From: Stramenopiles sp. TOSAG23-6
Lineage: Eukaryota
Direction of reading: 5' to 3'
DNA: 44,021 nt
Assembly: GCA_900128565.1 (NCBI GenBank)
Contig: LT635930.1
Span: forward strand, 1 to 44,021
Made by a program: the position numbers and the translations under genes. The notes under the pieces were generated by a model. The model ran no database searches and was not told where the DNA came from. It worked only from the letters and a program-made list of their open reading frames with translations. Positions 6,623-44,021 of this stretch are shown one piece after another; the first letter of the stretch is position 1; each line of letters starts with the position of its first letter.

Positions 6623-6774
6623 GAAGTACAAAGGTTGAAGGAGATCAATTTTGTTAGATACGAAATTATATACGAAAAAAGAATCTTCCATTGGTGAACA
6701 AAACGAATTAAATTACATAGGACAAACAATAATCAATTAATATTTANTATAATATAATANAATATAATAGTAAA

Positions 6775-14184: not shown

Positions 14185-14612
14185 ATTCAGTGTAGTTCCA
14201 ATTCTTTTGTAGGCTTAAATAATGATCGTAATTTCAACTCTAATATTTTGCAAAACTTGAGCTCAGGTTTCAGATTAATCGTAAATCTCCTCAAAATAAT
14301 CAAGTTTCTACAAGGAACGAGATACGTAGCCTTCCTTTGAAGTTTGAACTGCCTGAAAGGAGGAGGAGGCTCTCTCGAGGATAATTTAACCAATTTAACC
14401 GTCGCAAAATTCACTAAAAAAAAATTAAAACTTATCAAAATAAACCGTTATTTCGATTTCGCGCTAGACGAAGATAGTACGTTCAACAGTATCGTTCAAG
14501 ATACTCTCAAGATACGCTCAAAATATCGTAAGGCGCACACACCTAGCAAGGCCTACGTAATTGTACACTTCATTTTTAAAGCCCTTTCCTCCCTTTATAT
14601 TCTAAACGCATT

Positions 14613-17057: not shown

Positions 17058-17468
17058 ACTGAAACTCTAGTTTGTGCTTAAAGGCTTATCTTAGACACCT
17101 AAAGATAGACAAAGACTGAATAATCTACTGGTATGGCAGAGATACCAATACACGTATCGCCTTATGTACAATCAAATTGAAATTAGGCGGCTCGTTTAGT
17201 CTATATTGTCCTGGAAAACCTCTCTCTTTTATCCAAGTGTCCGTCAAATTTAGTGAAACATCCCGAAACATCAACGTTGAAAAAATTTATTTTGCGCGCG
17301 CGGTCAACTTTTTGGAAGTCTTCTACTAAAGCACCACGACTCCAAGTATATATAGAGAATATTAATAGATTCCACGCTCTTTGAGTATTGTAATTATATA
17401 TCAAACTCCACGATCCTAGCTACGTATTCGACAAACGTTATAAGTCATCTTCTAGATAATCCTGCAAA

Positions 17469-22878: not shown

Positions 22879-22930
22879 CTAGCTAGGGTTAGGGTTTCTG
22901 AATCTTGCAAGAAATAACTAGGGTTGGGGT
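22879..22930. promoter_or_regulatory. Telo-box-like elements CTAGCTAGGGTTAGGGTTT and CTAGGGTTGGGGT upstream of the FAM161-like gene
   Basis: Shares the 12-mer CTAGCTAGGGTT with 8078-8089. Confidence 0.4.
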
Positions 22931-23032: not shown

Positions 23033-26000
23033 CTATTGAACTTTCTTTTTTTTCTTCCGTTTTTTTCTAGTTTTTTTCTTACTATTACTATTACTTTTAT
23101 TATTCAAATTTTCTTTTTTTTTTCGTTTCGTCATCTCTTGAGCATGTGCAGTCCAATACGTTTCACCTGTTTTAGACGACGCAGCTTTCCCTAAGATAGT
23201 TCGAGTGAAATCTTCGCGATTGGGCAACTCGGCATTATTTTTGTTCGCAACATTTATTTTTGGCACATTCTGAATGTTATTAGAAAATGTATTGTTGTTA
23301 GGTAATGGATTGGGTACGATATTTTCTTGCATACGTTGTATGGAGTTTCCATGTGGAGCAATAATATTTGGATACGAAACGTTTTGTCGTTGCATTTGCC
23401 ACATTCTTTGAAATTCGATTTGTTCTTTTTGGTTGTACAAACTCAACTCGGGTAATTTTGCACCACACACTCGTTCAGCCTCAAGCCTTGCATTTTTATT
23501 TTCTTCTGCGATATTCCACTGAACAAACTTCATCATTGCATCGTTTAATTTATTAAGATCAGCGATACAGTATTTCTGTCTCTCATTCCAGACAAAATTA
23601 GCATCGTAACGCTTTTTAGCCTCGGTACATTCCGACCAAAACTTTTGAATTGTTTGGGCATAATAATTCAAACCTACTAAAAATGGTCCAGTTTGTAATG
23701 ATGTTCGTCGATGAAGAATAAATCTTACATATGCAGCAGCAGTATGTATAGTCACTGCAGGTTGCAACACATTCGGATTTTTATTAAAGTACCAACTAAT
23801 ATAATCATTGAAACTTTTTTTTTTTGCAATATGTTCCAAAGATGCATTATGAGTTGCCTTGTCAGTGTTTTCGATTATTCCACACCAAGGACATTTAAAA
23901 TTATTTTGAACATTATTTGAAAGACTGGGCCATGCTTCATCGTGTGTATTAAAGTCTTCAGCAGCTGACTCTATGCTAAAATATACTTGTCTATCCTGTT
24001 CCATAGTACGCGGCCATTGATTGTTATAAAAATTAAAAATTTGACGCATATTTGCCTGATACACATCATATTGATGCCGTAGATTAAGATCAAGACACAT
24101 ATAATTGTAATGTTTTCTATTCTTTTCTTGAATTTCCAATCTTTGTTCAACATAAACATCTTTGGTTTCATCGATCGATTTATAATTTTGCCATTTCAGA
24201 AACGCCTCGGCAACTTTAACCTTTTCAAATATTTTTGAAATTCGGTCAAGTTTTTTTACACGATTTTCGTTCGCAATACGTTGAAGCTTTTTCTTTTTCC
24301 ATTCTCGCCAATATTGTTGAATTGTCCGAGCTGCCAATTGAAGGCTTCCGATATCAGTTAAGTCATCAGTAGTATCAGCATTTCGAGACGAAGATACATT
24401 TAGAGTTTGCTGTAAATCAATGTCTTTCTTCATATTTCTCGGTTTCAGTTTTGTTTTATCAGTATCCATCTCCCAATCCCAACTAGGCGGAATTCTTTCA
24501 TATTCAACAACATTAAGAAATAATTTAGACTTTGTTTTTTCCTTCTTCTCTCCTGGATTTTCAACGTCAAACTTGCCAACTTGTGTCCATTCTACTTCCG
24601 TTTCGGTATATACACCTTTGTCCTCTTTTTCAAGCTTCAGTTCTACAATTTTGTCATTTTGATCAACTTCTTTCAAAATATCCGTTACAGCTTGACGAAA
24701 TCCAATCCAATGTATCGGTGAAGTTGGATTATCTTTACTTTGTAAAGCTTTCAATGTTTTCTTTGTAGATGGAAATACCTCTTTAAGGAAACCGAAATGA
24801 TTTGACATACGAAGAAGTTGAAATAATATGACGTGTCCTTCATCTGTTGAACCAATATTCATTACAATCACAAGTAATGCAATAAATGCTCGTCTCCATT
24901 GTTCGCCTTCTTTACGATCGCGAAGTCCACCAAAGAAACCAAGCCCAAAAGCAACTGCGGCAAAACCATCCATTATTCTTGTTGCAAACTTACTCGTCTC
25001 ATCAGGTTTCTTGACATTGCATAAACTTTGACGTAATTTTGATCCACGCTTAAAATAACGATTCATCCAAGATTGAGGTACACGTAACGTTTTACTATCC
25101 GATGCAGAATACGAAGCCATAGGCAAAGTCATTGCGACGAGCTGTTCAAATAACGCAGCGCGTACTCTCATCGGTGCTTCAAGTTCCTTATAACGAATTC
25201 GACCAATACGGGAATCATTGCGTTTTTCTTTTTGGAACCATCGCACGAAATCTGAAAACTTTTCTAAAGCCAAATAAAAATGACTAGAATCGAGACTTTC
25301 TTCAGAATCAATGAAAATACGCCAGAAGAAAAGTGTTTTCTTCATATTTGGATAATAAAATACAAACGGAGGATCATTAGGGCGCCATGACAAATGCCAT
25401 TTTCGTTTTTTAACTTGATTATAATGATACAATTTCTTAAATTCGGATTCGGTGTACGCTGTTGCATCAACTGGATCAAATCGTATTTCCTTATCATTAT
25501 CATTTTTTTTCATCTTTTTTAACTTGAGATTTGCACTGCTAATTTTTGTTTTGAAAGAAACGTCTTTTTCAATTGCATCCATCAATGAATTGACTGCTTT
25601 TTTGTACGCTCCATCGTTTGGTTTACATATTTTCATGTTAATTAACAAATCAAAAATTGATTGAGATGATAGGGATGACGCAGATAATTTATCTTTTTCT
25701 TCAGATGATATTAAAAACTGCCACATCAAATCTAAATTCAATGAACGAAGTATTTCGCTTTTTTCATTTTTTAACTTTACAATATATTTTCTAATCTCAT
25801 CATACTTAGATGGAAGCACAGAAGTATCAAGGATAAAATATCCTAGATTATTTTTACACTTCAATTTCAATGATTCACAGTGACCAGAAAGAATCTTTCC
25901 GAAAGATGTAGATGAAAGTGAAGGATTTTTGTTTTTCACGATACCGGGTAAGAGTGACTGATGATTACGACTATTCTGTTTATCCAAATAATTCGCGGAA

Positions 26001-29000
26001 TTCCAGAATAGAAGGTGTTTAAAACCAACAGAGGACTCATCGGAGTTTTCCAAATCTTCATGATATCGCTTAGAACCAATAGGAAAGTCCAGAGATTCCT
26101 GTGTAGTTTTTACAATATGTCCCGTTAGATATCTTTGAAGCGACGATTGTATTGTATTGAACCATAAACCAATTAGAATATGCATTTCCGATATCAATAT
26201 TCTGGGTTCCTCAAGTTTGGTCTTACTCTTATTTCCATCGCTATCACAATAATCAAGCATACGAAAGAAATGTAAATTTGCTTGAATGTCATTCTGAATG
26301 TCATACGAATTAAAATGTAATTCCGAAGGCTCCAATTCAAAGAACACTTCAATGTCACGGGCAAGAGAACGAGTAGACTCTTTATCAGGATGCAAAGACA
26401 TTTCAAACGCCATTTTTTGTCCTTTTACAAGATTTCTCAATAATTTTATAATGATGTGATATACGTAATCTAATGACCGAATCTCAGTTGAACTAAACGA
26501 TTTTTCTTGTACACCTTGATTTCGTTTTTCCCACTGAGATTTTATATGTGCTAATAATTTTTTCTTATTTACTCTTTTTCCCTTAAACTTTGCAGGTATT
26601 TCGAAAGACTCTTCGGCTGCATATTTTAGAATTTTTTTGGTGGAATCTGAAGTCGTGGGTAGAGGTTTTATTTCGATCTTTTTAGCATCAACTGACTTGG
26701 ATGGTTGTAAATTCTTGACTTCATTGAAAATCTTTACAAGTATATCTTCTCTTTCCACAAAAGCATATGCTGCATATGCGATACGAATAATATTTTTTGA
26801 CTTTAATGCAGTTATTAAACTAGACCAAGATGATTTATGATCATTCAACGATACAGATTTCCACCAGGAAACTTCTTCTACTCTAGATTTCAGATTGATT
26901 TCTCTGAATAAAGTTTCTGCTTTATCAAAATATCCGACTTTTTCGGAATCTTTTGCACGAAATCCTAAATGAAAATTAGACCGAGCCATGAGACTTTTCA
27001 CTTCTGTATTTTTGGTCTCAGATTCAGGTAATTCATCAAAAGTCTTTATTGCATCTTGAAATCTTCCAGCGCGCACATATTCTCGTATTACGTCAACCAA
27101 ACGATTATTTTCACGCAAAATTTGTATACATTGATCTACACATCCATTAGTACGAAGAAATTTCAATGCTTCTTCAACATCTAAATTGCGTAAAGTTGTC
27201 ATCATTTCTGAAATATTATTACGTTTTAAATATGATTTAGCAGATAATTTTTGAAGAACAAGTAAATCATAATTTGGACCCGCATCTTTAAAAATCTTCT
27301 CATGTTCTTTCACGACTTTTAAGGCATCATTATAAAATTCTTTTTTTAAATAAAAGTCTACGACAAATTTATAATCACCTCTCTTCAAATGACACTCTGC
27401 TGCTTTACCAAATTCAGATAAAGACTCATATAAACGAGCTGCGTCATTATACAATCCAACACGAGAACTAATGTGAGCTTCAAGGTGTATTGTTTCGTTC
27501 TTCGATATAGTATTAGAGTCTTCTCTCGATGCAGTATCAAGACAAGCAATTCCAAGACGAATAAAAGTTTCCATTTCTTTTCTTTGAGCTTTAGTCAAAC
27601 TATTATTACCTACATCACCACCAGCATTCTGAGCACCCCTGAGAAACATCTCTGCTGCTTCAAAGAGTTTCTCAGAGCGCTGCAAAAATGTACCTTTAAA
27701 GAAAAAGTACAACTTACTACGATCATTCGCTTTATCTAAACATTGAATAGCTCTCTCAAGCATAGACAATTGAGTTTCTACACTATTATCACCATCTTCT
27801 GAAAGTTTATAAAAATTCGTTGCACGTTCGATCCATTCTGCAGGTGTACTTTTTTCATTACCCGCAAAAAGATTATTACTATTTGAGTCGTCGTGAACTT
27901 TCACAAGGTTCATTTTTCTCCAAAGTTCAAACATAGGTAATCTGGCTTCCTTATCTTCATCAAAAATCCAAACATTTACTCGCGCTCGTGTTATTGCGAC
28001 ATACAAAGATTTCAGTTCAGATTCTAAAATTCGGTGTTTTGATTCGCTAAAAGGTAACTTACGAACATTACCCCAAGTTGAACGAGAACCTACGGTATTA
28101 TCTTCTGTCTTTGCATCTATTTCTTCAGCATCATCCCACATAGATGTTGACTTTATACATCTCCAAGCTTTGTGACTTTTACTATCTCTAAAGAAATTGA
28201 ATAATAAAACATCATCAAATTCTAAACCCTTTGCTTCATTCACAGTAAAAACACAAGGATGTGAGTTCAAGAAATCAATTTTTTTCAGTTCAGCTTTAGC
28301 TTTTGTATCTCTTACAATAACAGCTTGATGAGCTCCGAGTTCAATTTCACTGGTACCCGAGTCTTGACTTCCTACCATTGTACATCCTAACTGATTTCTA
28401 TCACTCACTGCCATTACTAATGGTGCTGGACCTTCAAAAATACCTTCGTCATCAGGCAATTTATCAAGAGAATCTTTGAATAGAATATTTAAAAGATTTA
28501 CAACTGAGGAAGCAAGTTTCAAAATTCCAGAATGAGATCGATAATTATGAGAGAGTTTTTGTAACGCTGGTGTTCTAATTTCTTGTTTTTTGTATATTTC
28601 GTTAAATTGGTGAAATAAAACTTTGACATCCTCAAAACGAAAATGAACACCCGGTGCGATAGATTGTGCCGTATCACCCACAAGTACTAAGTCGTTGGGA
28701 CATTGAGAACAAATTAACATCAACCATAATTCCGCTTGGGTTGCATCCTGTACTTCATCGACATATATTTGATGAATGGGTAGCATATTTTTTTCACCAC
28801 GTTTCATTTGTGCTTCACGCCTCCGTACTAAATTATAAACAAGCATTCCTTTATCGTACTCACAATTCTTCACGCGAAGTTTTTCATATAATTCAAAAAA
28901 TGCATACACTTTCTCTTTCTGTGCATGAGAAAAATTCGATCTTTTGGCACCAAGTTTCTGATACTGGCGTAATGATAGACATCCAGGCCTCAATCGGATA

Positions 29001-32000
29001 TTGCTCTTTTTCGTGTCTTTTTCGTCTGTATCGTCGTCTTCTGTATAATGACTTGTCACCGATGCAATACTACCTTTAATAAATGATACGATTTCGCCCC
29101 ATACGACACTTGGTGAGAATGCTTCAATATCAACACCTTTTGCCACGGCAGACTTTTCCATTTTTGGCCAATATTTGTCAGTAAAAGACGAAAAAGTGAC
29201 TTGCCCACGCCAAACACCACCATTATTATCATCATTTTTTACATCAGCAACTTCATTATCAACAATATCATTATTCATCTTCAATTGATTCACACGATTT
29301 CGACCTAGTCTCATAACGTCGTCTTCTTCCTCACTATCACTAGCATCGGCCCAAGCACCAGCAGCAACAGGTATTTCAGTTAAACATCCAATATCTTCTG
29401 AAAATGTCACTCCTTGCACAAAATCCTCATTTTGACGATGTTGTACAAAAAACGGTTCAATAATATTATCGTCTTCTTCAGCAGTGCCAAGAGAATTATC
29501 TAATATATTGAGAAATTCTGATGTACGTAAAAACATAGGCCATTGTTCTTCACTGATATAACCAGTAAAAGACTTTGGTAACTTGCTCGGTAAAAATTTA
29601 TCACGTGGTAAATCTAAAGTTCCAGTGACAGAAGCACGCATACCTCGGAAATTACGCCACACTTCTTTACGCAGTACGGCATTTCGGGTCATAAAAACCT
29701 GATGCAAATGTTCTTTTTCAAACTTTTTATAATTGATTGGATCGTCTTGTACATTATTGTCGTCATTATTAGCCTCTTCAAGATCTATTCCATTTTCTAT
29801 TTGAAGAGCTCGCTCAGCAGAAGCACGCATTTTTGCACGAGCAACAGGAACGTTAAAGGTACCACCAAATTCAACACCTTCACCCATTATTTTCATTTTT
29901 TCCCAATGCCTTTGAAAACAATTCCACATCTTAAATATACAGCATGTAGTCTTTCCTGTCCCTGAGCGTCCTAATAATAGTAGTGAAGTGGGGGGGTTTG
30001 GTTGATAATAAATAATTTTCCATTCTTTCTCAGTTACACGAAACGGAATTTCTACTTGTATATCACTTTTACTCGTACCTTGATTCAAAATTGCAGTACA
30101 AAACTTTGAATTAAAGTCATAAAACTTCAAAATATTAAAAGCACCAGGTCTGTGTTCACCAGGAGGGTATACCTTCAATGGACTCATAGTAGTTACACCA
30201 GCACTTGAATACGTTTTTGGAAGATGTTGTTCAATGCCAGTACTAGTTCTTTCAATACCACCACCAACACCAGAATCTTCTAATTCTTTGGTAATACGAG
30301 CCTCTCCACCACGTTTCAGGCATAAACGAATATCTTCAATCTTTCTACTTAATTTATCGTGATTTAAAACTACACACCAAATTGTAATCATGTATTTTCG
30401 AAAAATATGACACAAAAAAANTNTTNGGNTACAAANTTNGNTATGAAAAATATATATCAATCTGAAATTGATAATTACAACGTACATATCGACATAAATG
30501 AAAACATCATTTTTTGCATCATTTCGATTTTGCGACAAACCAATATCTTGTTGCCATATGATTCTTGCACCACTGGTTAATTTTGTTTCGTACACTTTAT
30601 ATTTGGAAATAAGACTCTTTGCTTGTTTATAAGAACCCCAAAAACCTTTAGATATCGTAATAATTTCCTCAAATACTTGAATGATTAACCTCATATCTCG
30701 TTTTCGTTTTTTCTTTATCCAACGATACATTTCAGGTGACATTTTTACTTTCCACGGATTCTCTTTTAGTTCTTCATACTTACTTTCTAATTCTTCTTCT
30801 AATGTTTTAACTTTTTTCGGAACGTTTCGAATATTTCGAATGGCGTTGTAGCTTCTGATTGCTGCTTCATCTTCTTCTTCCATCAAATCATCATCATCGT
30901 CTGATTCGCCGGATTCTTCATCATCACTACTGCTTCCATTATCTTCACTATCTCCGTCACTAAGACTATTGCCTTCATCACTATCTTTCTCTGGGAAAAG
31001 AAGAAATAATCCAGGAATTTGATCCAAAAGTTGAGAAATTCTGACACGTATTGCTTTACACTCCGCTTCACGTTGTGCCAACTTTTGTTTTTTCGTAAGA
31101 GTTTTCACTTCTTTCTTAGTGAGAGATGTTTCAATTTTAGTTGTAGAATCTTTGATATCTATCTTTGATCGATCATTCGACTGTTCAGATTTTGCATTTA
31201 CATCATCATCTTCTGATTCGTCATCAAATTCACCATTTTGTCGCTGCTCCCATGCAATCTTTGCATTTTCAAATTCCTTTTCAAATTCTACTATCAACCC
31301 ATATCTCACCTTTTTTTTATTGTTTCTAGGCATATACTCTATTGCCGTTTTACCTTTAGCATTAACCAAAAGAGGATTTATTTTACCTTTATGCTTTTTG
31401 AGAAGATGGATAATAATGGCGCATTTTCGAGAATGTTTTGATTTAGTATGAAGTAATTTGAAAGCTGCATGAAGAGGAGTGTCTTTGTCATCAGATTCTT
31501 CATTATTCCAATTTGGATTTGCTTTCACTTTTAAAAGTTCTGCAACTAATGTGACTGATCGAGTTTCCACAACAGCATTGTATAGAAACAAATTGAATAT
31601 ACCATCAAGAGAATTTAACAATATTGAAGCTTTCGTTGATTTACTTTCGACTAACTGTCCTGAAGATATTTGTTTACGTAAATTCATCATCAGATGTTTC
31701 TGAATTTTTCGATACTTTGGAATAAAACATTCATATATTTGCTTATCTGACAACTTCGAATTTTTCAACAATGTCGAACCCTTCTCTTTCACACCTGATA
31801 AAAACAATTCTACTGGACACAAACCATCACGATTACCTAATAATAAGTCATAATCTTTGTTGCCAAAAAAGAAATCAAGCTTCACTTGATAAAACTGGCT
31901 AAACATAAAATTTGTGATATCCGCTTCTTCAACGTCTTCGGGCAATGAATTTTTAAAAAATTCTCTGCGAATTGATACATCTCTATTATCGGCATCAGAT

Positions 32001-35000
32001 TCATAATGTGTCAAATCGCGAATTGCTACATGTAAAATGGAACCAGTGCGATCTTTAGGATCATTCCAATAAACGTCGGCTCCAGCTTTAATTAGAGCGT
32101 CGTATATATCTACATCTAAAACCGGAAACAAATTTAACTTAAAAAATTTGAACAATAATCGATTTAACCAATTTTGTAACTCTTTTTTCTTTTCCAAACG
32201 CCAATCTCTCTTTTTATTCGCTTTATTCGGTTTTGGATTTTGAGATTTTTCTTTAGGAGTTATTTTTGATTTTTTAACATTTTCGTCATCACTATCACTA
32301 TCACTGTCACTGTCACTGCTGCTCGAATCAGCAATTCGATCTAAAGTTGGCATTTCGGAACTATCAGAATTACAATCAAAATCAGAATCGCTATTCACTG
32401 CGACTAAATCAGGTATTGAATCTGAATCACTATCACTTTCTTTATCAATTGTTTTACTTTTCTTTGCCTTTTTTGAAGAAGGTTTTTCAACATTTCTTTC
32501 TTCATCTTCATCTTCATCTTCGGGTATTTCAGGATCAATGTAATCAAAAGGATAAAACTTCATAAAAACATGGACAAATTCAAGAACATCAAACGCTTTC
32601 GACAATATTTCCTCTACTACCAAGCCTTTAAAACGACCAGTAGAAAAACGAACTGATTTTGGAGAACCTTGAGATTCAGAATAACATTGAAAAAATTTTA
32701 AAATTTCTGAAAAAGTATCATCTAAGATACATTGAAAATTTGCCCTGCCATCATTATTTTCAATTCCGAACTGCCAAACAAATTTATCTATAGTAGAAAT
32801 ATATTGATCTTCACCAAGAAGGAGTATACAAGCGTAATTAAAGAAGAACGTTTTCGCGCCTACTAAATATGTTTCCAACCAATACTGAAAAACGACAGTC
32901 GACAATTCCGATGATTGAAATATTCCTCTAACAAAATCACCTATTTTCGGAAACTCGGGAGCGATTGCAGTAGTATATATTTTTAAATCTTCTTCTTGTT
33001 TTTTGCCATCTTTAGGCCACATTGAACACGAGTCGTTGTATGCTCTTTTAATTTCGAAATCAGATTCCAGAGACTGATGGTCAAGGGAGAAATGATTAAA
33101 AGGCTGTAAAGATCTCTCTCGTATCTCAAAAAGGTGTTGATATACTGCATGAGATTCTTGGTTTATTGTTTTGTTTTCATGACTCGAAGCTGATTCATAA
33201 ACAAAACAGATGACATTAGTAATACTTGAAATTGATTTAGCAACATATTCACCTTTTACTTTATGTGCACGATTGATAAGTACATCTACGGACGGAAACT
33301 TTGGAAACGATTCATTTAAGATAGCGTTACTGATTATTCCTTTCAACTCTTCACCTGTTGCTAAAAATTGAGCCCAAACCCAATTTTTATCGATAACATT
33401 TGAAAATGCCATGTTGTCAACTGCGACTAAATATGTTTCGTACAATGTAGTATCTTTCACGATGTCTAAAGCGGTTGGTTTTTCTTTTGGTTGTACTTTA
33501 GGTTGTGACTTTTTCGTTTTCTTTTTCTTCGTATTACTTTTTAAATGAGCAAATTCGTCATCATCTGAACTTTCAGATGCACTTGCTATAGGGATAAGAC
33601 ATGGTATACTATCATCACTATCACTATCACTATCCGAATGTATAGGTTGTAGCTTTGGCATATCATCACTATCACTATCACTATCACTATCTGAATTCAT
33701 AGGTTGTAACTTTGGCATATCATCACTATCACTATCTGAATGTAAATGTTGTAGCTTTGGCATATCATCACTATCATTACCAGTGTCTTGTTTAATTTCA
33801 TCTTGTATTTGCATATCGTCAAAATCATCAGGTAATTTATGAAATGTCATTCGTGCTAACATTTCATTCAAAAGTGTATAATGCTTAGTGTAATGGTCAT
33901 GAATTTGCTTCTCTTCTATTTTTTTAACTTTTTCACTTTTATCAAACCAGGAATTGATTACAGATTTATTGTTTTCTATTTCGACAGTGAGTAAGATACA
34001 ATCCAGTGATCGATTACAATCTTCTGCCGACCATTTCATTCTCAATAAATCAGAAGCATTCAGTTCTGTTGTCCAAAGAATACGCCTAGGGTTGCAGCAC
34101 TCGCAAGAATTCTCAAAGTAATCCAAAATAACATCCTTATAAATTTCTACATGACCATCTGACGAGACTTCGCTTGAACAGATTCCAAACATTCTCATCG
34201 AAACGGTCGAATTTACTAATGTCTTACGATCATAATCATGTATTGTGAAAAATAATTGTAGAATTATTTTTGTTAGGTACGGAATTTCATAAGAAAAAAT
34301 ATTAGATAAAACATTCAATTGTAAAAACATACATGGCTTTCCAATGATATAGAGATTTTACGATTTAGGTCTCCACCGAAAAAAGAAGAAATTTCAAAAT
34401 ACTCATCATCCTCAGGTTCGTCTTCATTTGAGTATGAATAGCTAATTTTCAAACTCCAAGTTGAACAATCTGAAGCAATTATGTTACTAAAGGTTAATTT
34501 GAACTCGTAATCTAAAACATCTCCATCTTCTTCAACTGTCTTTGAGTCTGCTAATTTTTTTATACTAAAATATTGTTTTAGAATTATTCGTTCACTAAAG
34601 ACATCCTTAGGTGATGCATATCGTCGAAAGTCCTTTTCTTTTAATCTTTCTAGAGCATTGCCTAGCGAAAGTTTTAATTCTGGATAAAAACAAGAGGTAT
34701 TATCGTGTACACTATCTTTTAGTTTTGGTACAATCATATCGTTGAAAAGTTGCAATACATCAATATCACCTTGATCGGCAGCTTCTACTAAAATGTTCCA
34801 AAATAATCCACCCAACGTACTAAAATCTGTTTTTTTACAATTCTTTCTAAAATATTCTATAACACGTTTTATACCATATTTGCTACCCGCTGGATGCGGA
34901 CCTAATTTTAAATACGGTACAAAAGAAGTAGTTTGTAACGAATACTCAAGACAATGCATTAGCCATTTTACATCTATACAATCCCAAAATGCTTTTGCAA

Positions 35001-38000
35001 ATGCAATATCACAGCGAGAATAAGTTTCAAAATACAGAGTCTTTACAATATTTGATTTCAGAACATGATCTTCACTAATTTTGATTTTTTTCGTCTTCGT
35101 CTTTGGTGACACCGGAATTGTAGATGGATTGCAATATGAATCAGGTAACACTACTTTTGACTCATTTCGCCAACGAATCCATTCACGTTTAAATCTTTCT
35201 AACTTTTGTACAGCTAATAATTGATCTGGAGAATAATAGCCATATTCGACATATTCCGTGGCAAAACGCCTCATTAATTGATGCATATTGGGGGCATAAT
35301 CTAATGTAATTGTCATTAAATCTGAACGAACGCGTTCAAAATTTTTGATAATTTTGTAAATTTGAAATTTATCTCGTACTTTGGTAATGGGAGAAATGTC
35401 TTTTATCTTAAAAGGACCATTACCATTCTTATAAGGACCAGAAGTATTACCACGAAATATAGGATGATAAGTTGTCACAGTTCCAGGATATTCATTTGAT
35501 CTATTTGATACTAAGGCATCTATAAGATTACGGGTCTTCTGTGACTTGATGAGACGCCACTCGACTTCTTTATCTACTATATTTCGACATTCCGCTTCAG
35601 CGACAACGCGCATTTTCCAGTGAGATGTACTTGTTTTTATATCGTTTTTATTTATACGAGTTCGCATCACAGCATCAATCATAAATTCAGGCATATTTTT
35701 GGGCGCAATTTCTGTCGTCACTATGCAGAGTTGCCATACAATATCGCCATTATTTTTTACAATTGGTCGAATCACAGGACAATCATAATGTGTAATCAAA
35801 TCTTCATCTCCCACAAGAGTAGTCGTATCCTCACCAATATAAGTAGGTAGTCTCAGATCAGTCAGTTTAATGTTTGATCTTATATAGGCACCACTAACAG
35901 AAACATTATCATCATACCAATTAACTACAAACGAATCACTTTGATTTTCGAAATCAAGTTTATCCGAGGTTTTTCTACGAGCAGATAACCACAAAAAATT
36001 CTCACAATCAGGATTGTATCCCTGTCCATGCAATAATAAAAGAGTACCCATATGTTTTGGCGTTTCCACTACAAATTTCGACATAATCGACAGAACACTT
36101 TCAAATCGATTCAAGCACAATGTTTCACTACAACCATATTTTTTACCACATTCATAGACACACCCTTCGATATTCGTTTTTTTCCCAATATTTTTCACAG
36201 TAGAAACAAGACCAGAAATACTTTTCATCGCCGTAGAAAAAATACCAGAATCTTTCTTTGAGTTTTTATTAATCAACACACATGTCTTTTCATGATTTTT
36301 CACATTTTCATACAGACCAAAATAGCCACATTTTGCAGTACAACAAAAACGTTTGGAAAATTTTGCCTCTGATATAACGATTGTTTTACTAGGGTTCGGA
36401 CCACCAACTTTTTTATTCTTTTTTATTTCACCACTTTTGAGTAATTCAACTTTATATTTGTTCTTCTCGGTGTTAAATGAAAGAATTTTACCAGCAGTTC
36501 CATGTATGATGAAAAGATATTTCAAAAAAAAAACTAAAATTTGTTAGGTACAAAATTTCATACAAAAAAACATGTAGACAAAAAATTGAAATGAAAACGT
36601 ACATTGTACTTTAACGCTTTTGGATTTTTCAAACCATTAATCAAAATTATATCACCAACGTAAATTGTTTCATCGACTGGTTCACATTTAATTTTTTCTA
36701 TTTCAGCAACTTTTATATTCGATGATTTATTCGATGATCCATTTAGAGACGTTTCAATAGTATCTGGAGAAGTTGAACGAGAGCTCGATTTAGGGTTAGG
36801 GTTAGTGTTTTGTTCTTTTGAATCTTTTGAATCTTTTGATGTATTGATTTGTGATGAAGATTTGGCGTCATCTTTATTTTTCTTCTTTTTCTTCTTTTTC
36901 TTCTTCTTCGACTTTTTCGCAACATTTGTAGACGTCTGCGCATTAGTCTTAGGGTTCGAACGAGAATTTGCTTTTTCAACTTTCTCCGATGTAGACTTAC
37001 TCTCATTTCTTGCTTGTTTTAGGCGAGCTATTTTCGCAGCATGTTCTTCAATAATTGCAGCTTCCTTCAATTGTTGCTCTCGTACAACTCTTTCCTCATC
37101 TGCAGCGATTTTAGCGACTCTTTTTTGCTCTTCCAAGATTTGTTTTTCTTTCTGAATTCTTCGTAATTCTTTTTCTTTTGCAATTTCAGCAGCCTTGAGA
37201 CGTTTTTCTTCGGCAAGCTTCTCCTGTTCAATACGTCTTTGTTCCTCATTCTTTTCCCTTAAACGCTTTTCTTCAGCAAGTTTCTCCTGGTCTCTTTTTC
37301 GTTGCAACTCTTTATTTTCCTTCATACGCTTCTTTGCAGCAAACTTTTCCTCTGCCTTACGACGCGCTAATTCTTTCTGTTTTCTCTTATCTCACTTAGC
37401 TATTTTGGTTTTGAACGTAAAGTGGAAGCTAGCATTGTATTGTTCTTGTGTTGTTTGATTTTACACGTTTCTCTTCAGCAAGCTTAGTCGCAATTTCCCT
37501 TTCACGCTTAAGTAAGGCTTCCACTTTTCGTCGTTCTTCATCAAGTTTCTCTTCCTGTACATTGCGATTGGCGATATTAGAGTGTGACATAGTCTCAAGC
37601 TGAGATGGCTGAGGTTCGAGCATGCCTAGTGCCTGTGTGAGCGTCAACACACCCTGCTGCACCAAATCGCGCAGGTCATTGGTCAAGGCACTCATCCCTT
37701 TCGAAGCAACTGTGCGATAAAACTGCTGGTCTACTTCTGGTTGAATAGCACTATCTGAACGTTCGAATGGGTCATTAATCACGGTCTCCGTTCCACTGGA
37801 AGCGACTCTGCTGTACGACTGCTGGTTCAAGGAAACCCTTGGCTGGTTTACTTCAGGTTGAATAGTACTATCTGAACGTTCGCGCGTGTCATCAGTCAAG
37901 GCACCTATTCCATTGGAAGGAACAGCGCGATGAAACCGTTGCTTTACTTGTCGAACGACAATGTCTGGACGTGGATTTCTGCATACTCTGCAAATTATAC

Positions 38001-38058
38001 ACTTATCAGCCCCGTCTGAAACATTTTTGATATAGCATACACGACAAGTCCAAGTCAT
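23033..38058 (-). CDS. Giant TRANK1-like UvrD/SF1 helicase with ankyrin and TPR-like repeats; exons 38058-37465, 37388-36603, 36501-34333, 34237-30486, 30389-23033 (~4,885 aa)
   Basis: GRSGTGKT, YVDEVQD, GDTAQSI, NYRSHSGI, EAKGLEFDDV and LYVAITRAR. Ankyrin-like TPLHAA and GSILHVA, IQ-like AARTIQQYWR, N-terminal RanBP2-like WTCRVC...CIIC. Four ORFs join in frame (14,658 nt). Inclusion of the first exon is least certain. Confidence 0.82.
30390..30485 (-). other. GT-AT intron, family member (96 nt, in frame)
   Basis: GATAT|GTACGT...CGAAAATACAT|G. Core partly masked by Ns. Read through in the ORF track as YVVIINF...RKYM. Confidence 0.8.
33597..33776 (-). repeat. Coding tandem repeat (SD)nDMPKLQ x3-4
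   Basis: Near-identical units containing CTTTGGCATATCATCACTATCA and ATCACT hexamer runs. Confidence 0.85.
34238..34332 (-). other. GT-AT intron, family member (95 nt)
   Basis: CCAT|GTATGT...GTACCTAAC...CACAATACAT|GAT; joins the 736-aa and 3765-aa ORFs. Confidence 0.85.
36502..36602 (-). other. GT-AT intron, family member (101 nt)
   Basis: CAAT|GTACGT...GTACCTAAC...CATCATACAT|GGA; gives GLKNPKALKYN|GTAGKILSF. Confidence 0.85.
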
Positions 38059-38214
38059 GACTAAACTTTGACCATGTGGCGACGCAAAAGTTAGTAGTTT
38101 TAGTCAACTGCTACAATATAAATTCCCACTTTACGTGTAAAATCAAACAACACAAGAACAATACAATGCTAGCTTCCACTTTACGTTCAAAACCAAAATA
38201 GCTAAGTGAGATAA
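37387..38214. repeat. Perfect 82-bp inverted repeat: 37387-37468 and 38133-38214
   Basis: Checked block by block; 82/82 identical in reverse complement. Confidence 0.95.
37389..37464 (-). other. Probable non-family intron (GT...AT, 76 nt; or GT...AG to 37386, 79 nt)
   Basis: CGT|GTAAAA...GTGAGAT|AAG. Contains stops in both flanking frames; both candidate ends are in frame. Confidence 0.5.
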
Positions 38215-38425
38215 AGGTCAGACAAACCAATCCTACAAGTTTGGTAGCTGCGAAGAAACGATGATGATAGTGTTTCTGGCCATGCGCGGTCACTTGAGTC
38301 AGGCAGATCGCATCATAAATCAAATGTTACCGGGTAATCTAATGGCCAATCAAAAATCTTTCATTTCTTGACTCATTCATGATATAAATAATATCTTGTG
38401 CGAAAAGATGGTCATTTTAGTCTAA

Positions 38426-40268
38426 ATGGCTTCGTCACCAGTGACCAGCGATATGAAGCTGAGGCCATCTCATGCAGAAAAAGCTTTGACATTTTATGAA
38501 GCTGTGGCCAAAGTTGTTGCTTTACGTCTTGAGGATAAAAATGCTGAAGAAAAAGAAGAAACTTGTTCTTTAGGTGTTTTCATCCCTGATCTGGCAAATT
38601 GTATTTTTACAGGTCACACAAATACAGACATGGATTCCATAGCGTCAGCAATTGCAGCTGCACATCTATATCCTGGGGGTATTGCTGCCCGAAGTAGTGA
38701 CATCAACTCTGAAACTGAGTTTTGTCTGAAACGTTGGGTAAGTCAAAACATACTAACACTCTCTTGTTTACTTCACTAATTGTTTTTTTTTTCTGTTGTA
38801 CACCATATTATTAAAACCAACTCATTTAAACTCTGCAAACATTTACATTACAGGATATACCAATGCCTATTCCGTTTATTGAAGCTTTGGATGCTCAAAG
38901 GAAGCAGAATGCAATTATCAACATGGAAAATTCACCTGAACATACAAGCCGTGTCTGCTTAGTTGACCACAACCAAATTACGCAAAGTCCTGCTCAATTA
39001 GAAGAGAGTTTTGTTGTAGGAATAATAGATCATCATGCTATGCAAAAAAAAACTATATGTACAGATAAACCTGTGTTTGTTGATATTCGCCCTTGGGGCT
39101 CCGCATGTAGTATGTATGTTTAATTTTTTTTTAATTTCAATTTTTTTTTCGTACGAAATTTTGTACCTAACAAAAATTAATTTTTTTTTTGAAATATTTC
39201 TCCAAAATAAATTATTACAAGTCAGTATTTAAATCAGAGTAAGCAAATCCCAAAAAAGTATACTATATTTATTTCAAGCAATACCGCAATATATAGGCCC
39301 TACTACAATTTTACACCCTTTTATACTAACCTATTTTTCATTGAACACACATTTGACATATATTACAAATAATAAAATTGCAGGTATGCTATTATCTGGA
39401 ATTCTCTCGGATACATTAAACCTTCAGTCTCCAACAACAACAAATCATGATCGTCTTGCAGTTGCAACTTTAGCTTCTATTGCTGGTGTTGATGACATCA
39501 ATACACTTGCAATTGAGCAGTTTCGTGCGAAAAGTACGAGTTTAGCTTCGCTCTCTGCATATCAAATTGTATGCGGTGATCGAAAGATATTTGATTGTGG
39601 TGGTGAAATTATGGCATTTGGAACTTGTGAATTTTACGGTGGTATGAATTCTCTTTTAGGACGCATTTCAGAATTTATGTATTTTTTATTTTTTTTCAAA
39701 TTTGATTTTTTTTTCGTACGAAATTTTGTACCTAACAATTTTTTTTTTTAATATTTTTCCAAAATACATACATGAACTGCGAGCATTGACAAAGGAAGAA
39801 AAACTGCGGTATAATTTCTTGACACTAGTTGATATAGAAAATATGCATTCCATTTTAGTTATGCCAACTATGGCCGAAGTTTTACTTGCCAGATGTGCCT
39901 TCAAAACAACTAATAAAGATAATAAAAACATAGAACCTTTACACTATAGTGGAGTTTTCGAATCCTTACAAGAGATCAAGAAAATCGAAAATGAAGTTCA
40001 AAATGCAGGTGTCCTTGATCTAGGAAATCGTGTTTCAAGAAAACATGATTTTATTCCACCATTAGCTGCGGCTATTAATGATGGTTTCGTACTACCCGAT
40101 GATGTTAAAAAGAGTATTAGTGATGAAGAAGAAACTGCTGAATATGGACCTGTTGTTTTAGCTTGTGGCGAACATGTATGTGGTCTTCAAAGAATAAGTA
40201 TGAAAGGACTAGGCCTTGGAGTATTGGCGTGTATTCGACTATCAGAATGTGTAGGTCATTGTCATTAA
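38426..40268 (+). CDS. Family II (DHH/DHHA2) Mn-dependent inorganic pyrophosphatase, PpaC-like; exons 38426-38737, 38854-39113, 39213-39257, 39376-39678, 39770-40268 (~472 aa)
   Basis: GHTNTDMDS, LVDHN, IIDHH, RPWGSACSII, IAGMLLSGILSDTL...SPTTT and VSRK..FIPPL. Confidence 0.88.
38738..38853 (+). other. Canonical GT-AG intron (116 nt)
   Basis: TGG|GTAAGT...TTACAG|GAT, in frame. Confidence 0.88.
39114..39212 (+). other. GT-AT intron, family member (99 nt)
   Basis: AGTAT|GTATGT...GTACGAAATTTTGTACCTAAC...AAAATAAAT|T; gives GSACSIITSQY. Confidence 0.87.
39258..39375 (+). other. Non-family non-canonical intron, probably GT-AA (118 nt); GT-AT alternative ending 39363
   Basis: AAAA|GTATAC...TACTAAC...AATAATAA|A ATT GCA gives QIPKKIAG. 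The nearby CAG (39381-39383) is out of frame. Confidence 0.65.
39679..39769 (+). other. GT-AT intron, family member (91 nt)
   Basis: TTTAT|GTATTT...GTACGAAATTTTGTACCTAAC...AAAATACAT|A. No AG inside. Gives SEFIHELRAL. Confidence 0.87.
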
Positions 40269-40301
40269 TTGTTTATAAATTTAAATTTAAATGTTTTATT
40301 T

Positions 40302-43300
40302 TTATTGCGTTTTAACAAGCATTTGTAAGACATTCTCTTCATGAACGCCATGAAAATGTAAGGATTGGCGGTCTTCCATTTGTCGTCCACCAAAAATTAA
40401 AAGTACGCGATTTGCCTCAACACCTTCAAGCCGTGCAATCTTTTCCTTTACTTGTTGGACTAAGTCACTCGTCAAACATAATACAGAAATGAAAGTACCA
40501 TCTATTCGTTTGATTTGTAAGCGAATTTGTCCCAGTATATCAGATTGAGAAAGTGACATATTTCCCATACTACTATTTATAGAAAATTGAGACTCTCCAA
40601 TACCTAACATTTGATTATTGATATTTTCGTTTACTGATAACTTTTGTATTCCAGGTAACAGTATTCGTCTATGTACAGGTCTAATTTTCATTTCTTCCAT
40701 ATCTTCAGTGGTAATTAAAGAACAAGCAGAAAGTGTATCAAAACCTTCATGCTCAAAAGCTTTCGTGACATAACAAACAATGCGATCATGAAGGCCAAGG
40801 CTTGAAATCCAACGTACGACACGATTCTCTCTATCCAAATTTGCAATATCAAGACTTAATGTAGTGTTATCTTTTGTACTATTACTAGGAGATGCGTTTA
40901 ACTGTGGGGGTGGGGGTACATCATATATTTCACAAGAATCTCCTTTTTCATATAGTGAAACGGCACCAACATAAGACTCACCTCTAGGCAAATCTGCCCA
41001 GGCAACACCTTGATCTACACCATTCAAATAAAAGCGAAGTGTTCCCATTGTTGCATCTAATTCAACATCGACCACACTTTCAGATTCTACGAAACGATCA
41101 CCATACAAATCTGAAGCTGGTCCTCCATGACCTTTCTTACCATTTGATTGATAATATCCCCAACCTTTATCAGTCTTATTAACATAACTATCAATCTCAA
41201 CATCACGTAGACATACACCAACAGTTGCTTTTGTCCCTTTTTTAAGTATGAAACTCCATTGAGCTTTGCCAGCATTTACAACAGGTCCAATTAAGACAAT
41301 TCCATTGTCCCAACTAGTTGCTGATTTTTTAATTTTAATTTGATTGTCTTTTCCTCGTTCTACTTTAGTAGAAGCTCCCCTATCAACTACCGTTGGAGCC
41401 CACACCTTTGTATGCGCCGTTGTTGCTCGTACTATTAGCTCTTTTTCCCTCGCTGCAGCTTCTAAACCTTGGTTCAAATCGCATTCCTTATCTAATTGAC
41501 GTTTTGTAGCTGCTGGTGACTTCAGACCTTCAAGAATACCAGGAAAAGGACGACCACTAGCGACTGTAACACATTTCAGAATACTCACGCCATCACCATG
41601 GCCATACAGAGAAAATGCACCAGTAAATCCATTGTTTTTACCCACGGGAAGTTTCAAATCTGACCACGCTACACCTTGATCTACACCATTCAAATAAAAG
41701 CGAAGTGTTCCCATTGTTGCATCTAATTCAACGTCTATAATACTACCAGCTTCCTTAAATTTTTGACCATATGGTGTACTTGCTGGACCAGCATGTCCTT
41801 TCTTACCATTTGATTGATAATATCCCCATCCTTTATTAGTTTTATTCACATAACTTTTCATATCAACATCACGAAGACACACACCAACAGTAGCTTTCGT
41901 GCCGGAGTCTACTCGAAAACTCCAACGAGCCTTGCCAGTAACTACTACAGGCCCCACAAGTACAAGACCATTTTGCCATCCACTCCCGACTTTTATAACT
42001 GAATGCAAAGCCGGGGAAAACTCGGTTGCAAAAGGTGCCATGCCACTTCGAACGGAAGAAGACATTGCAAGTACAGGACTTTTGCCAAATAATCCAGAAG
42101 TATCTGGGATAACTAAACCATCTGCATGAGATGAAAGACCATGAGCAGCTAATACAGTCACAGCGTCGCCTGCATCAAATAGCGAGACAGCCCCAACAAA
42201 TTGTGCACCTTTAGGCAAATCTGTCCACGCTACACCTTGATCTACACCATTCAAATAAAAGCGAAGTGTTCCCATTGTTGCATCTAATTCAACATCTACA
42301 ACACTTCTACATTCCCGATAACGTTCGCCATACGGTGTGCTTGCCGGGCCTCCGTGGCCTTTCTTACCATTTGATTGATAATATCCCCAACCTTTTTCAG
42401 TCTGATTTACATAACTATCCATATCAACATCACGGAGACATACACCAACAGTTGCCTTCGTTCCCTTCTCAAGACGAAAACTCCACATTGCTTTCCCAGA
42501 AGATACTGGAGCGCCGACAAGTATCATTCCGTTTTCCCAACTACGCGTTGATTTGGAAAGAACGTTTCCAGAAACTTTCGTCGCAGCACCTTTAGCAAAT
42601 ACCAATGAAGCAGCAGCAGATGAGGCTTTTTTATGCTTCTGAACGCTAGAACTTCGACGACGAGCTTTGTTATTGATAACATCTTCGTGCTTTTCATCGT
42701 GAATATTTTGGTGAGGTGATATCAAAGGAGCTACATCTTTTTTTTTTACATCTATAATAGTTACCATATCACCAACATCAAATAATGAAACAGCTCCGAC
42801 AAATTGTGCACCTCTAGGTAAATCTTTCCAAGCTATACCTTGATCTATACCATTCAAATAAAAGCGAAGTGTTCCCATTGTTGCATCTAATTCAACATCT
42901 ATCACACTACCAGGTTCCTTGAATTTTTGACCATATGGTGTACTTGCCGGACCACCATGTCCTTTCTTACCGTTAGATTGATAATATCCCCAGCCTTTAT
43001 TAGTTTTATTAACATAACTATCCATATCAACATCACGAAGACATACACCAACAGTAGCTTTTGTCCCCTTATCAATACGAACTCTCCATTTGGCTTTCCC
43101 CGAAGATACAACTGGTCCAAAAATTACTAAACCATTTTCCCAGCTTCTAGATATTTTTATGAATCCGCTTGCAGGTAAGGCTTCAATTGCTGAACCATGT
43201 GATATAACTAACGCCGCCTCATTTAGATTTTTCATTACGGGTAAAGCAATTGGAACAATTGGAGGGCCATTAGCGTCCCCTATTACAATGTGTTTAGGAG

Positions 43301-44021
43301 ATTGAGGATCATCAACATTATAATGACGATGAACATGAATATGATACTCATTTTTTGTATCTATAACAGTTACCATATCACCAACATCAAATAATGAAAC
43401 AGCTCCGACAAATTGTGCACCTCTAGGTAAATCTTTCCAAGCTATACCTTGATCTATACCATTCAAATAAAAGCGAAGTGTTCCCATTGTTGCATCTAAT
43501 TCAACATCTATCACACTACCAGGTTCCTTGAATTTTTGACCATATGGTGTACTTGCCGGACCACCATGTCCTTTCTTACCGTTAGATTGATAATATCCCC
43601 AGCCTTTATTAGTTTTATTAACATAACTATCCATATCAACATCACGAAGACATACACCAACAGTAGCTTTTGTCCCCTTATCAATACGAAATCCCCATTT
43701 GGCTTTCCCCGAAGATACAACTGGTCCAATAATTACTAAACCTTTTCCCCAACTTTTAGAAATCTTTTTGAATTGATTTCCATTCTGTTGAATTTGTGTA
43801 CCTTTAGCTAAAATTTCAGGAGATACTAAAACACGAGGATCTGGAACGTTTGGAGGAACTATACGAGGATCACGTGGTACAGGCACAATTGCAGGGGGCG
43901 GCGATACATTGTGGTTTCTTCTTTGTTCGTATCTGCATCCCATTAAAGTGACTTGATCACCTAAAGCAAATAATGAAACAGCTCCGACAAATTGTGCACC
44001 TCTAGGTAAATCTTTCCAAGC
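40302..44021 (-). CDS. Multi-SPRY (>=6) + SAM + C-terminal ubiquitin-like domain protein, 5'-truncated by the window edge
   Basis: Five full repeats GKAKW.F...ATVGV...GWGYYQSNG...LDATMGTLRFYLNG. The frame stays open upstream of 43943 (AWKDLPRGAQFVGAVSLF). SAM-like EMKIRPVHRRIL and Ubl VKEKIARLEGV...LIFGGRQMED. Confidence 0.88.
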   Translation of the reverse strand, partial: AWKDLPRGAQFVGAVSLFALGDQVTLMGCRYEQRRNHNVSPPPAIVPVPRDPRIVPPNVPDPRVLVSPEILAKGTQIQQNGNQFKKISKSWGKGLVIIGPVVSSGKAKWGFRIDKGTKATVGVCLRDVDMDSYVNKTNKGWGYYQSNGKKGHGGPASTPYGQKFKEPGSVIDVELDATMGTLRFYLNGIDQGIAWKDLPRGAQFVGAVSLFDVGDMVTVIDTKNEYHIHVHRHYNVDDPQSPKHIVIGDANGPPIVPIALPVMKNLNEAALVISHGSAIEALPASGFIKISRSWENGLVIFGPVVSSGKAKWRVRIDKGTKATVGVCLRDVDMDSYVNKTNKGWGYYQSNGKKGHGGPASTPYGQKFKEPGSVIDVELDATMGTLRFYLNGIDQGIAWKDLPRGAQFVGAVSLFDVGDMVTIIDVKKKDVAPLISPHQNIHDEKHEDVINNKARRRSSSVQKHKKASSAAASLVFAKGAATKVSGNVLSKSTRSWENGMILVGAPVSSGKAMWSFRLEKGTKATVGVCLRDVDMDSYVNQTEKGWGYYQSNGKKGHGGPASTPYGERYRECRSVVDVELDATMGTLRFYLNGVDQGVAWTDLPKGAQFVGAVSLFDAGDAVTVLAAHGLSSHADGLVIPDTSGLFGKSPVLAMSSSVRSGMAPFATEFSPALHSVIKVGSGWQNGLVLVGPVVVTGKARWSFRVDSGTKATVGVCLRDVDMKSYVNKTNKGWGYYQSNGKKGHAGPASTPYGQKFKEAGSIIDVELDATMGTLRFYLNGVDQGVAWSDLKLPVGKNNGFTGAFSLYGHGDGVSILKCVTVASGRPFPGILEGLKSPAATKRQLDKECDLNQGLEAAAREKELIVRATTAHTKVWAPTVVDRGASTKVERGKDNQIKIKKSATSWDNGIVLIGPVVNAGKAQWSFILKKGTKATVGVCLRDVEIDSYVNKTDKGWGYYQSNGKKGHGGPASDLYGDRFVESESVVDVELDATMGTLRFYLNGVDQGVAWADLPRGESYVGAVSLYEKGDSCEIYDVPPPPQLNASPSNSTKDNTTLSLDIANLDRENRVVRWISSLGLHDRIVCYVTKAFEHEGFDTLSACSLITTEDMEEMKIRPVHRRILLPGIQKLSVNENINNQMLGIGESQFSINSSMGNMSLSQSDILGQIRLQIKRIDGTFISVLCLTSDLVQQVKEKIARLEGVEANRVLLIFGGRQMEDRQSLHFHGVHEENVLQMLVKTQ
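42750..43744. repeat. Near-identical ~385-bp SPRY-coding direct repeats (~42750-43135 and ~43359-43744, offset 609)
   Basis: Only a handful of mismatches visible. A further identical stretch begins at ~43969. Confidence 0.9.

Follow-up and report, generated by a model that had tools for sequence, protein, structure and literature searches.

Introners of Micromonas and Aureococcus have reportedly been described by Huff and colleagues, and non-canonical introns in Fritillaria by Henriet and colleagues. A survey of introners in Micromonas, Aureococcus, dinoflagellates and other protists, many of them marine, presents them as short, non-autonomous and near-identical introns in unrelated genes, whose removal restores the mRNA and whose splice sites are supplied in part by the element and in part by the repeat or target at the insertion site (PMC9860276). 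In the published descriptions consulted, introner families have GT/GC...AG borders. Here we describe a repeat family that shares these core features except for the 3' dinucleotide, which is AT in 13/13 copies. The family lies in contig LT635930.1 of Stramenopiles sp. TOSAG23-6 (assembly GCA_900128565.1), of which all 44,021 nucleotides (nt) were analysed (hereafter the window). Our focus is a 91-nt copy with GT...AT borders at 39679–39769 (plus strand, phase 2), located in a gene for a family II (DHH/DHHA2) inorganic pyrophosphatase (38426–40268, plus strand). Reading frames and homologs support the view that this stretch is an introner-type repeat that forms an intron without an AG border, and that removal of the element plus one AT restores the frame. 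The family further differs from described introners in its flanking repeat, which is 2 nt long and constant, and in its inverted repeat of 5 + 4 base pairs (bp) with a 2-nt bulge.

Three other systems invite comparison. The non-canonical introner elements of Amoebophrya are likewise non-GT-AG, with inverted repeats at their ends, short direct repeats at their borders and no internal transposase, but their borders are described as widely varying and their 8–20-nt inverted repeats as forming hairpins, for which a different mode of splicing was proposed (PMC7789003). The family described here, in contrast, has constant GT...AT borders, a normal donor and branch box, and a weak fold. Rare GT-AT introns of animals have the same terminal dinucleotides and are reported to be experimentally spliceable (PMC1557818); here, a whole multiplying family makes up most introns of the window, and both its donor and its branch distance are of the major (U2) type. 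Miniature inverted-repeat transposable elements (MITEs), finally, are small, noncoding and present in many copies, with inverted termini and a short flanking direct repeat. Unlike these, the family has no locus-specific duplication and very short termini, and no intergenic or antisense full copy or autonomous partner in the window. The lack of copies in both orientations and in noncoding DNA is a weak test of a MITE origin, since the window is largely coding. Our literature search returned no paper linking introners with marine stramenopiles (MAST) and none on a GU-AU intron family. The main texts of two MAST genome papers are silent on unusual splice sites and introners, with the words 'splice' and 'non-canonical' absent (PMC5778133, PMC12614181), and one curation pipeline is described as admitting only AG and AC as intron 3' ends (PMC12130899).

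The element is preceded by an exonic AT (39677–39678), which forms the left half of an AT...AT direct repeat conserved among copies and is retained in the mRNA. Its 5' splice-site region, GTATTTTTT (39679–39687), matches the family consensus GTAYGTTTT except for a T instead of a G at +5. A 12-nt palindrome, TTTCGTACGAAA (39712–39723), detected as a BLAST self-match on the opposite strand, lies in the most conserved central block, which is kept across copies. It is followed by a branch-site-like box, GTACCTAAC (39728–39736), nearly invariant in the 13 copies, which places the presumed branch A at 39735, 34 nt from the 3' end. The 3' arm, AAAATACAT (39761–39769), contributes the last AT, taken as the 3' border from copy conservation.

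Removing 39679–39769 leaves 60 and 59 open codons on either side, and the resulting junction, ...LLGRISEF/IHELRALTKEEK..., aligns without a gap to 5/5 homologs at 50–57% identity. A sister copy in the same gene (39114–39212, plus strand, 99 nt, GT...AT) behaves in the same way, its junction ...PWGSACS/IITSQYL... being gapless against 5/5 homologs. Excision between TA dinucleotides, as in a ciliate-type internal eliminated sequence, was rejected: at the 39679 copy the removal of TA...TA (85 nt) leaves 2 extra residues, present in none of the 5 homologs, and in the 39114 copy it creates a stop. Protein is collinear at two further element junctions, in addition to the two of the pyrophosphatase. 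In a DEAD-box helicase gene, the junction ...EPY/IHRLGRTAR of the copy at 9734–9825 (plus strand), 92% identical to the 39679–39769 copy by BLAST, rebuilds Y-IHRLGRTAR, and the part downstream aligns with DEAD-box chains of the PDB. In a Tubby-like gene, the junction of the copy at 12743–12837 (minus strand) rebuilds the W of WNKD (WNKDLNAWTLNFDGRV), and from that W on the protein aligns with Tubby-related protein 1; a PDB search with the Tubby exon 12839–13045 gave no relevant match.

Across the family, 12/13 copies yield a single open frame that extends 36 codons or more to either side, mostly 59–60, once GT...AT is removed at the consensus ends. The frame sets the intron length only modulo 3 and would fit in one case in three by chance, so twelve fits at the consensus ends are strong evidence. 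In the thirteenth copy (18341) the frame opens when the 3' border is placed 4 nt upstream, where the dinucleotide is an A and an ambiguous base. An AG was sought as an alternative acceptor within ±14 nt of the 3' border in 12 copies, 11 of which had frame-keeping options; it was in frame in two, and one of these two is unused according to the RNA contigs described below. Four copies contain an AG between the branch box and the 3' end, in frame in none.

Contigs from four RNA libraries were aligned to positions 34200–40350, where stretches without cover are uninformative. A joint from 39111 to 39211, skipping 99 nt, was recovered from runs X4 and X5, which come from two studies, with a single contig in either run. 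The X4 contig (record 19, polyA library) spans 260 nt, its shorter arm at the joint measuring 104 nt; the X5 contig (record 22) spans 198 nt, with a shorter arm of 34 nt. Both align without a mismatch except for a 1-nt gap. The joint carries a 2-nt ambiguity, by which the skipped piece can be read as AT..AA, TG..AA or GT..AT. This skip matches the predicted excision of the sister copy at 39114–39212. In run X2, hundreds of contigs match the interior of the element with many different flanks, which fits a large family; the summed depth on element-internal bins is very high and is not readable as copy number. A further X2 contig (record 11) retains intron 1 of the pyrophosphatase gene unspliced. 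Because this intron is kept there, and the next intron downstream of the joint is kept in X4 record 19, DNA or unspliced RNA is present in the libraries.

Under a rival explanation the element would stay in the RNA. The seemingly spliced contigs would then derive from DNA of alleles into which it had never inserted, and the interrupted genes would be broken or rescued in another way, for example by DNA elimination. The X4 contig without the element but with the next intron, and the X2 contig with intron 1, both agree with this explanation. We nevertheless consider it very unlikely. All 13 insertions can be removed in frame, including those in the helicase and pyrophosphatase genes with conserved motifs intact, which would not be the case in decaying genes. 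The donor and the branch box are kept in every copy, and TA-bounded excision fails at both pyrophosphatase elements, as described above.

To delineate the family, the 93-nt stretch 39677–39769 was used as a BLAST query, which returned about a dozen relatives, and a profile built from these was run over the window with nhmmer. This yielded 13 full-length copies (E-values 5e-20 to 5e-12) of 91–108 nt and one degenerate fragment. All 13 full copies lie within coding sequence and in sense orientation to the gene, spread over five genes: the DEAD-box helicase, the Tubby-like gene, an unnamed gene, a giant gene and the pyrophosphatase. The consensus begins with the exonic AT and GTAYGTTTT, continues through a variable AT-rich part, the conserved block TTTTCATACGAAATTTTGTACCTAAC and a T-run, and closes with terminal AAAATACAT, followed by G in 9/13 copies. 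Conservation has a sharp left edge, with A at exon position -2 in 12/13 and T at -1 in 13/13, while -3 and beyond are mixed. In the donor, GTA occupies +1 to +3 in 13/13, G stands at +5 in 11/13, and T at +6 and +7 in 13/13. At the 3' end the counts are A at -4 in 13/13, C at -3 in 10/13, A at -2 in 13/13 and T at -1 in 13/13. The CTAAC branch box is nearly invariant, and its A lies 32–42 nt from the 3' end in all copies.

Pairwise identity among the 13 copies ranges from 57 to 92%. Five of them (9734, 13047, 18341, 39114 and 39679) form a young group that is 82–92% identical over the full length although it is distributed over four different genes; the others are 57–77% identical. Because of this high identity in four genes, we attribute the family to several waves of copying and not to old shared introns. 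That the copies are ordinary old introns, alike through shared splice signals and AT-rich filler with nothing mobile about them, is the least probable of the explanations we weighed. AT-richness is indeed a feature of introns here, and A-rich 3' tails are also seen in introns outside the family. However, the identity of the young group extends over about 95 nt in unrelated genes, including parts with no known role in splicing; the profile finds 13 full-length matches at E ≤ 5e-12 while leaving introns 1 and 3 of the host gene unmatched; and the host genes belong to different Pfam families and are not recent duplicates of each other.

The Tubby-like gene (12400–14214, minus strand) is far denser in copies than the rest of the window, holding five within about 1.1 kb, with exons of 208, 65, 209 and 88 nt between them. 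Besides the copy at 12743–12837, the only one of the family preceded by GT in place of AT, these are 12555–12649 (nhmmer E-value 5e-12; frame restored with 59 and 52 open codons), the young-group member 13047–13139, 13205–13300, which ends in ...ATATAT, and 13509–13603, the last three identified by nhmmer and frame. The unnamed gene (17460–19694) carries copies at 18066–18162 and 18341–18448 on the plus strand, the frame of the latter requiring the 3' border at 18444. The giant open reading frame (ORF) 23036–34357 contains a 96-nt minus-strand copy at 30390–30485 through which the raw ORF reads. Another minus-strand copy lies between two large exons of this giant gene (34238–34332), and a third is found between large exons at 36502–36602. 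Except for 18341–18448, for which the shifted border applies, these copies were likewise placed by nhmmer and frame.

The degenerate fragment (6625–6706, minus strand; nhmmer E-value 1.4e-5, model positions 37–78 only) is a partial relative of the central block in noncoding sequence directly after a stop codon, that of the hydroxylase gene. The surrounding stretch begins with ATGTAA and ends in ...CTCTGTAG, so that this may be an old family member that ends in AG and lies in noncoding DNA. Two further observations concern the copies themselves. The base directly after the intron is G in 8/8 older copies and in 1/5 young-group copies (post hoc Fisher p ~0.007), which could reflect survivorship of better-spliced copies or a shift of target. 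Moreover, three copies (at 13513, 18427–18444 and 30421–30441) account for 13 of the window's 18 single-base Ns, which suggests mixed bases met by the assembler, from collapsed repeats or variants.

The exact register of the borders is ambiguous in the mRNA: exon and intron both end in AT, so GT...AT, TG...CA and AT...AC yield an identical product. GT...AT fits 13/13 copies, while AT...AC fits 9–10/13, with AT..AA, AT..AT or GT..AA in the rest; as GT...AT alone fits all copies, it is the preferred register. Introns of the U2 type have a GTRNGT-like donor and a CTRAY branch box. The features of the family are of this major type, with GTAYGT in register with the U2-type donor and a CTAAC box 32–42 nt from the 3' end; the 3' terminal AG of U2-type introns is replaced by AT in 13/13. 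Minor (U12-type) introns have the donor RTATCCTT and the branch box TCCTTAAC 10–20 nt from the 3' end, and a U12-type intron was rejected given the family donor GTAYGTTTT and its branch distance.

Placing the borders 2 nt further left would give AT...AC introns (AT...AA or AT...AT in some copies), with A-C termini like those of AT-AC introns. The mRNA would be the same wherever the exon ends in AT; 12/13 copies offer AT at the 5' side and 10/13 offer AC at the 3' side, and the alignment program reported the RNA joint as AT..AA. Introns with AT-AN termini are described as spliceable by the minor spliceosome (PMC1557818). This register is improbable in our view, however, as it suits fewer copies than GT...AT and would turn the 12743 copy into GT..AA. 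It also disregards that GTAYGT aligns with the U2-type donor and not with the minor-type motif, and that the branch box lies beyond the minor-type distance. We therefore retain GT...AT borders in what follows.

The original prediction had drawn attention to a perfect 9-nt inverted pair, ATGTATTTT at 39677–39685 and AAAATACAT at 39761–39769, and both the positions and the complementarity were verified; the pair grows to 10 nt with T39676 and A39770. It had also stated that most copies show ATGTAY...ATACAT, which agrees with an ATGTAY start in 12/13 copies and an exact ATACAT end in 7/13, with two more compatible through an N. Both parses it offered, GTA...TAC with an AT duplication and TGTA...TACA inserted before a T, are arithmetically possible. 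The window contains 28 perfect 9-nt inverted pairs at 60–130 nt spacing, against 27.7 ± 8.3 in 30 shuffles. A single inverted pair is thus not above chance; its placement and recurrence across copies are. In the family consensus, the inverted ends comprise ATGTA/TACAT (5 bp) and TTTT/AAAA (4 bp) across a 2-nt bulge, with 89.5% of 114 cells paired, and the perfect 9–10-nt repeat occurs only in the 39679–39769 copy among the 13.

The suggestion that these ends pair in the RNA and so juxtapose the splice sites fared less well. A covariation analysis of the 5' and 3' ends across copies, proposed with it as a check, found no compensatory change in the 9-pair stem: the few variants in the stem break pairing and none compensate. 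Moreover, 500/500 shuffles reached the observed pairing. RNA folding of the 13 copies was ordinary, with z-scores between -1.7 and +1.7 and the ends paired in the best fold of 4/13 (one of the copies folded with borders 3–5 nt off). The complementarity of the ends is therefore an inherited family consensus and not an RNA stem under selection. Pairing of the donor with the central CATAC block was also considered and rejected, as no consistent pairing was found across copies. Of the introner and transposon interpretation as first put forward, the intron-forming repeat of the introner kind, its non-AG borders and the AT...AT flanks stand on the frames and conserved columns, while end pairing in RNA and an acceptor produced by duplication alone are not supported. 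The claim that the AT acceptor is made from a target-site duplication is weakened by intron 3 of the host gene, which lies outside the family and seems to be non-AG too, pointing to a general tolerance in splicing.

How the family spreads is a separate matter. The AT/AT repeat is constant over loci, and exon position -3 matches intron position -3 in 3/13 copies, where about 4 would be expected by chance (computed from column counts). Because the repeat does not vary among copies, AT duplication and target preference are inseparable, and the introner survey regards across-intron repeats of such a pattern as ambiguous between duplication and a preferred site (PMC9860276). The GT that stands in place of AT in the flank of the 12743 copy is synonymous, the differing base being at a third codon position; this fits a drifting exonic repeat copy in a single case. 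Pfam searches found no transposase among the 17 large ORFs of the window. Two specific DNA routes were rejected: a Helitron-like insertion between A and T, as the element ends are unlike those known of Helitrons, and a Mariner-like TA duplication, which would need an empty site that is absent from the spliced mRNA.

Alternatively, the family may have spread via RNA, with the excised intron reverse-splicing into a different transcript at a site resembling its own joined exons (AT^G), being copied into DNA and recombining into the gene, which needs neither transposase nor duplication. All 13 copies lie within genes in the sense direction, neither a locus-specific duplication nor a transposase is seen in the window, the removed unit equals the inserted unit, and the conserved AT^G flank acts like a proto-splice site; fungal introners without inverted ends or duplications are interpreted in this way in the survey (PMC9860276). 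An all-sense set is unlikely by chance, and selection in a mostly coding window would yield it just as the RNA route would. By a rough sum of ORFs, coding sequence fills most of the window, so that selection alone could have left sense copies only. A DNA element would be expected to leave traces such as the AT/AT repeat and the inverted repeat at the termini, and the same survey makes the case that introners outside the fungi mostly move as DNA (PMC9860276). Within the introner reading, we regard spread via RNA as rather unlikely; spread as DNA is favoured, at a probability approaching an even chance, and the remainder is left unassigned.

Taken as a whole, it is likely that 39679–39769 is a copy of an introner family with GT...AT borders that is removed by the major spliceosome and that may have spread as DNA. 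The proposed course of events would start from a short, non-autonomous repeat that lands in coding DNA and survives by bringing its own signals for removal by the spliceosome. The family would move as DNA into AT, often AT^G, either duplicating the AT or simply preferring it. The major spliceosome would then make the cuts, taking the AT after ...ATAC as the 3' border in place of the near-universal AG. The inverted ends ATGTA/TACAT and TTTT/AAAA would be inherited family sequence, possibly leftover transposon ends.

Several points weigh against this interpretation. Known spliceosomes use a 3' AT poorly as a substrate. None of the contigs from the four RNA libraries spans 39677–39769, and removal there rests on frame and homology. 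At the sister copy, the skipping X4 contig retains 57 nt of the intron that follows, and an additional A in an A9 run is shared by the X4 and X5 contigs with the skip. Incompletely spliced RNA could account for these contigs, as could contaminating DNA from an element-less allele. The mRNA is identical for GT...AT and for shifted registers, of which AT...AC suits 9 to 10 of the 13 copies. For the DNA route in particular, there is no locus-specific duplication, the inverted repeat is only 5 + 4 bp and interrupted, no transposase lies in the window, and antisense or clearly intergenic copies are lacking in the window except for the one degenerate fragment. The whole case rests on one 44-kb window and one extra protein. 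Finally, GT-AT introns in animals are reported as isolated cases, with 7 of the minor type and a single conserved one of the U2 type across five genomes (PMC1557818).

The host gene was assigned from homologs with PF01368 and PF02833 and from alignments. Its exons are 38426–38737, 38854–39113, 39213–39257, 39376 (or 39379)–39678 and 39770–40268. Intron 1 (38738–38853) is an ordinary GT-AG intron outside the family. Intron 3 (39258–39378), also outside the family, fits the homologs without a gap if it ends at 39375 (GT..AA) and with a 1-residue gap if it ends at 39378 (GT..AT). The sole GT-AG option (39239–39383) would remove 9 residues, including an IAG kept in 5/5 homologs. Judged by this homolog fit, intron 3 probably ends in a non-AG dinucleotide. 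The X4 record 19 contig reads unspliced into it, and the contigs give no RNA support for its removal. The extra A in the A9 run, at 39044–39052 in this gene, is present in both skipping contigs and absent from an X1 contig; it would shift the frame and could reflect slippage, a variant or a separate copy.

In the window, non-AG ends are found in 13 family introns and probably in one unrelated intron, compared with a single clear GT-AG intron and one or two possible cases. We tentatively propose, at a level of confidence well below even, that the main class of introns in this uncultured marine stramenopile lineage is non-AG (GT...AT, perhaps GT...AN). If so, its major spliceosome would have a relaxed or altered reading of the last intron base, a change that the mobile element would have exploited genome-wide, and standard gene finders would mis-model much of the proteome. 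If the non-AG end of intron 3 holds, the AT acceptor would reflect tolerance of the spliceosome and not a mere by-product of duplication. The terminal AG is among the most constant signals of eukaryotic genes, and a multiplying family that ends in AT while keeping an ordinary donor and branch box, if true, would be a natural experiment on the choice of the second-step site. It would also extend introners to heterotrophic marine stramenopiles, in a form invisible to surveys of annotated canonical introns.

Traces of the family are found in database proteins. P0001 (source label eukprot:GSMAST32...) is 100% identical to one exon of the pyrophosphatase gene, and its label suggests a MAST-3 marine stramenopile affinity of the window. 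The P0001 model translates into both pyrophosphatase elements and forces other borders, so that MYFLFFFKFDFFF stands where IHELRALTK is expected. A protein search with an open-frame element gave 1 match among 4 candidates, P0121, with an E-value of 6.3 but real on inspection. P0121 is a GMP reductase-like protein with the same label as P0001, in which two further family copies are translated through, one insert ending in ...IFPKYM. Judging by these translations, the gene models of P0001 and P0121 contain element-derived peptides and have lost parts of exons, the introns being unrecognised there. Proteomes used to label marine metatranscriptomes carry the resulting errors, which a GT...AT-aware re-annotation could repair. 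Apart from P0121, the open-frame query found almost nothing of the family in the protein database. A 15-nt core of the element matched at least 119 loci in metagenome contigs; nhmmer found no family member among the matches listed, with one partial match at E 4e-4. No Rfam family reached the gathering score anywhere in the window, and around the elements none matched at E ≤ 1. Among public runs, only seawater or marine metatranscriptomes contain sequence words from the locus; the shares are small and are not evidence of habitat.

The window has a G+C content of about 36%, and its long, densely packed ORFs with few interruptions indicate a eukaryotic origin. Pfam assigned a Ras-type GTPase, an Asp/Asn hydroxylase, the DEAD-box helicase, a DNA primase large subunit, a FAM161-like protein and a SPRY-repeat protein. 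Two 82-nt arms (37387–37468 and 38133–38214), 100% complementary, enclose 664 nt with a minus-strand ORF. Each arm holds a unit resembling a GT-AG intron, starting with GT(G)TAAAATC and ending in ...CCAAAATAG(CTAAGTGAG). A recent inverted duplication or a second mobile intron might account for the pair, as might an artefactual inversion introduced during amplification or assembly. A telomere-like motif, AAACCCTAACCCTAG, occurs at 22883–22897 (minus strand) in the intergenic space between two minus-strand genes. The minus-strand SPRY-repeat ORF at 40305–44021 encodes 1239 residues and continues beyond the window, with five SPRY repeats (DNA period of about 600 nt) together with SAM and ubiquitin domains; its newest two repeats are 99% identical.

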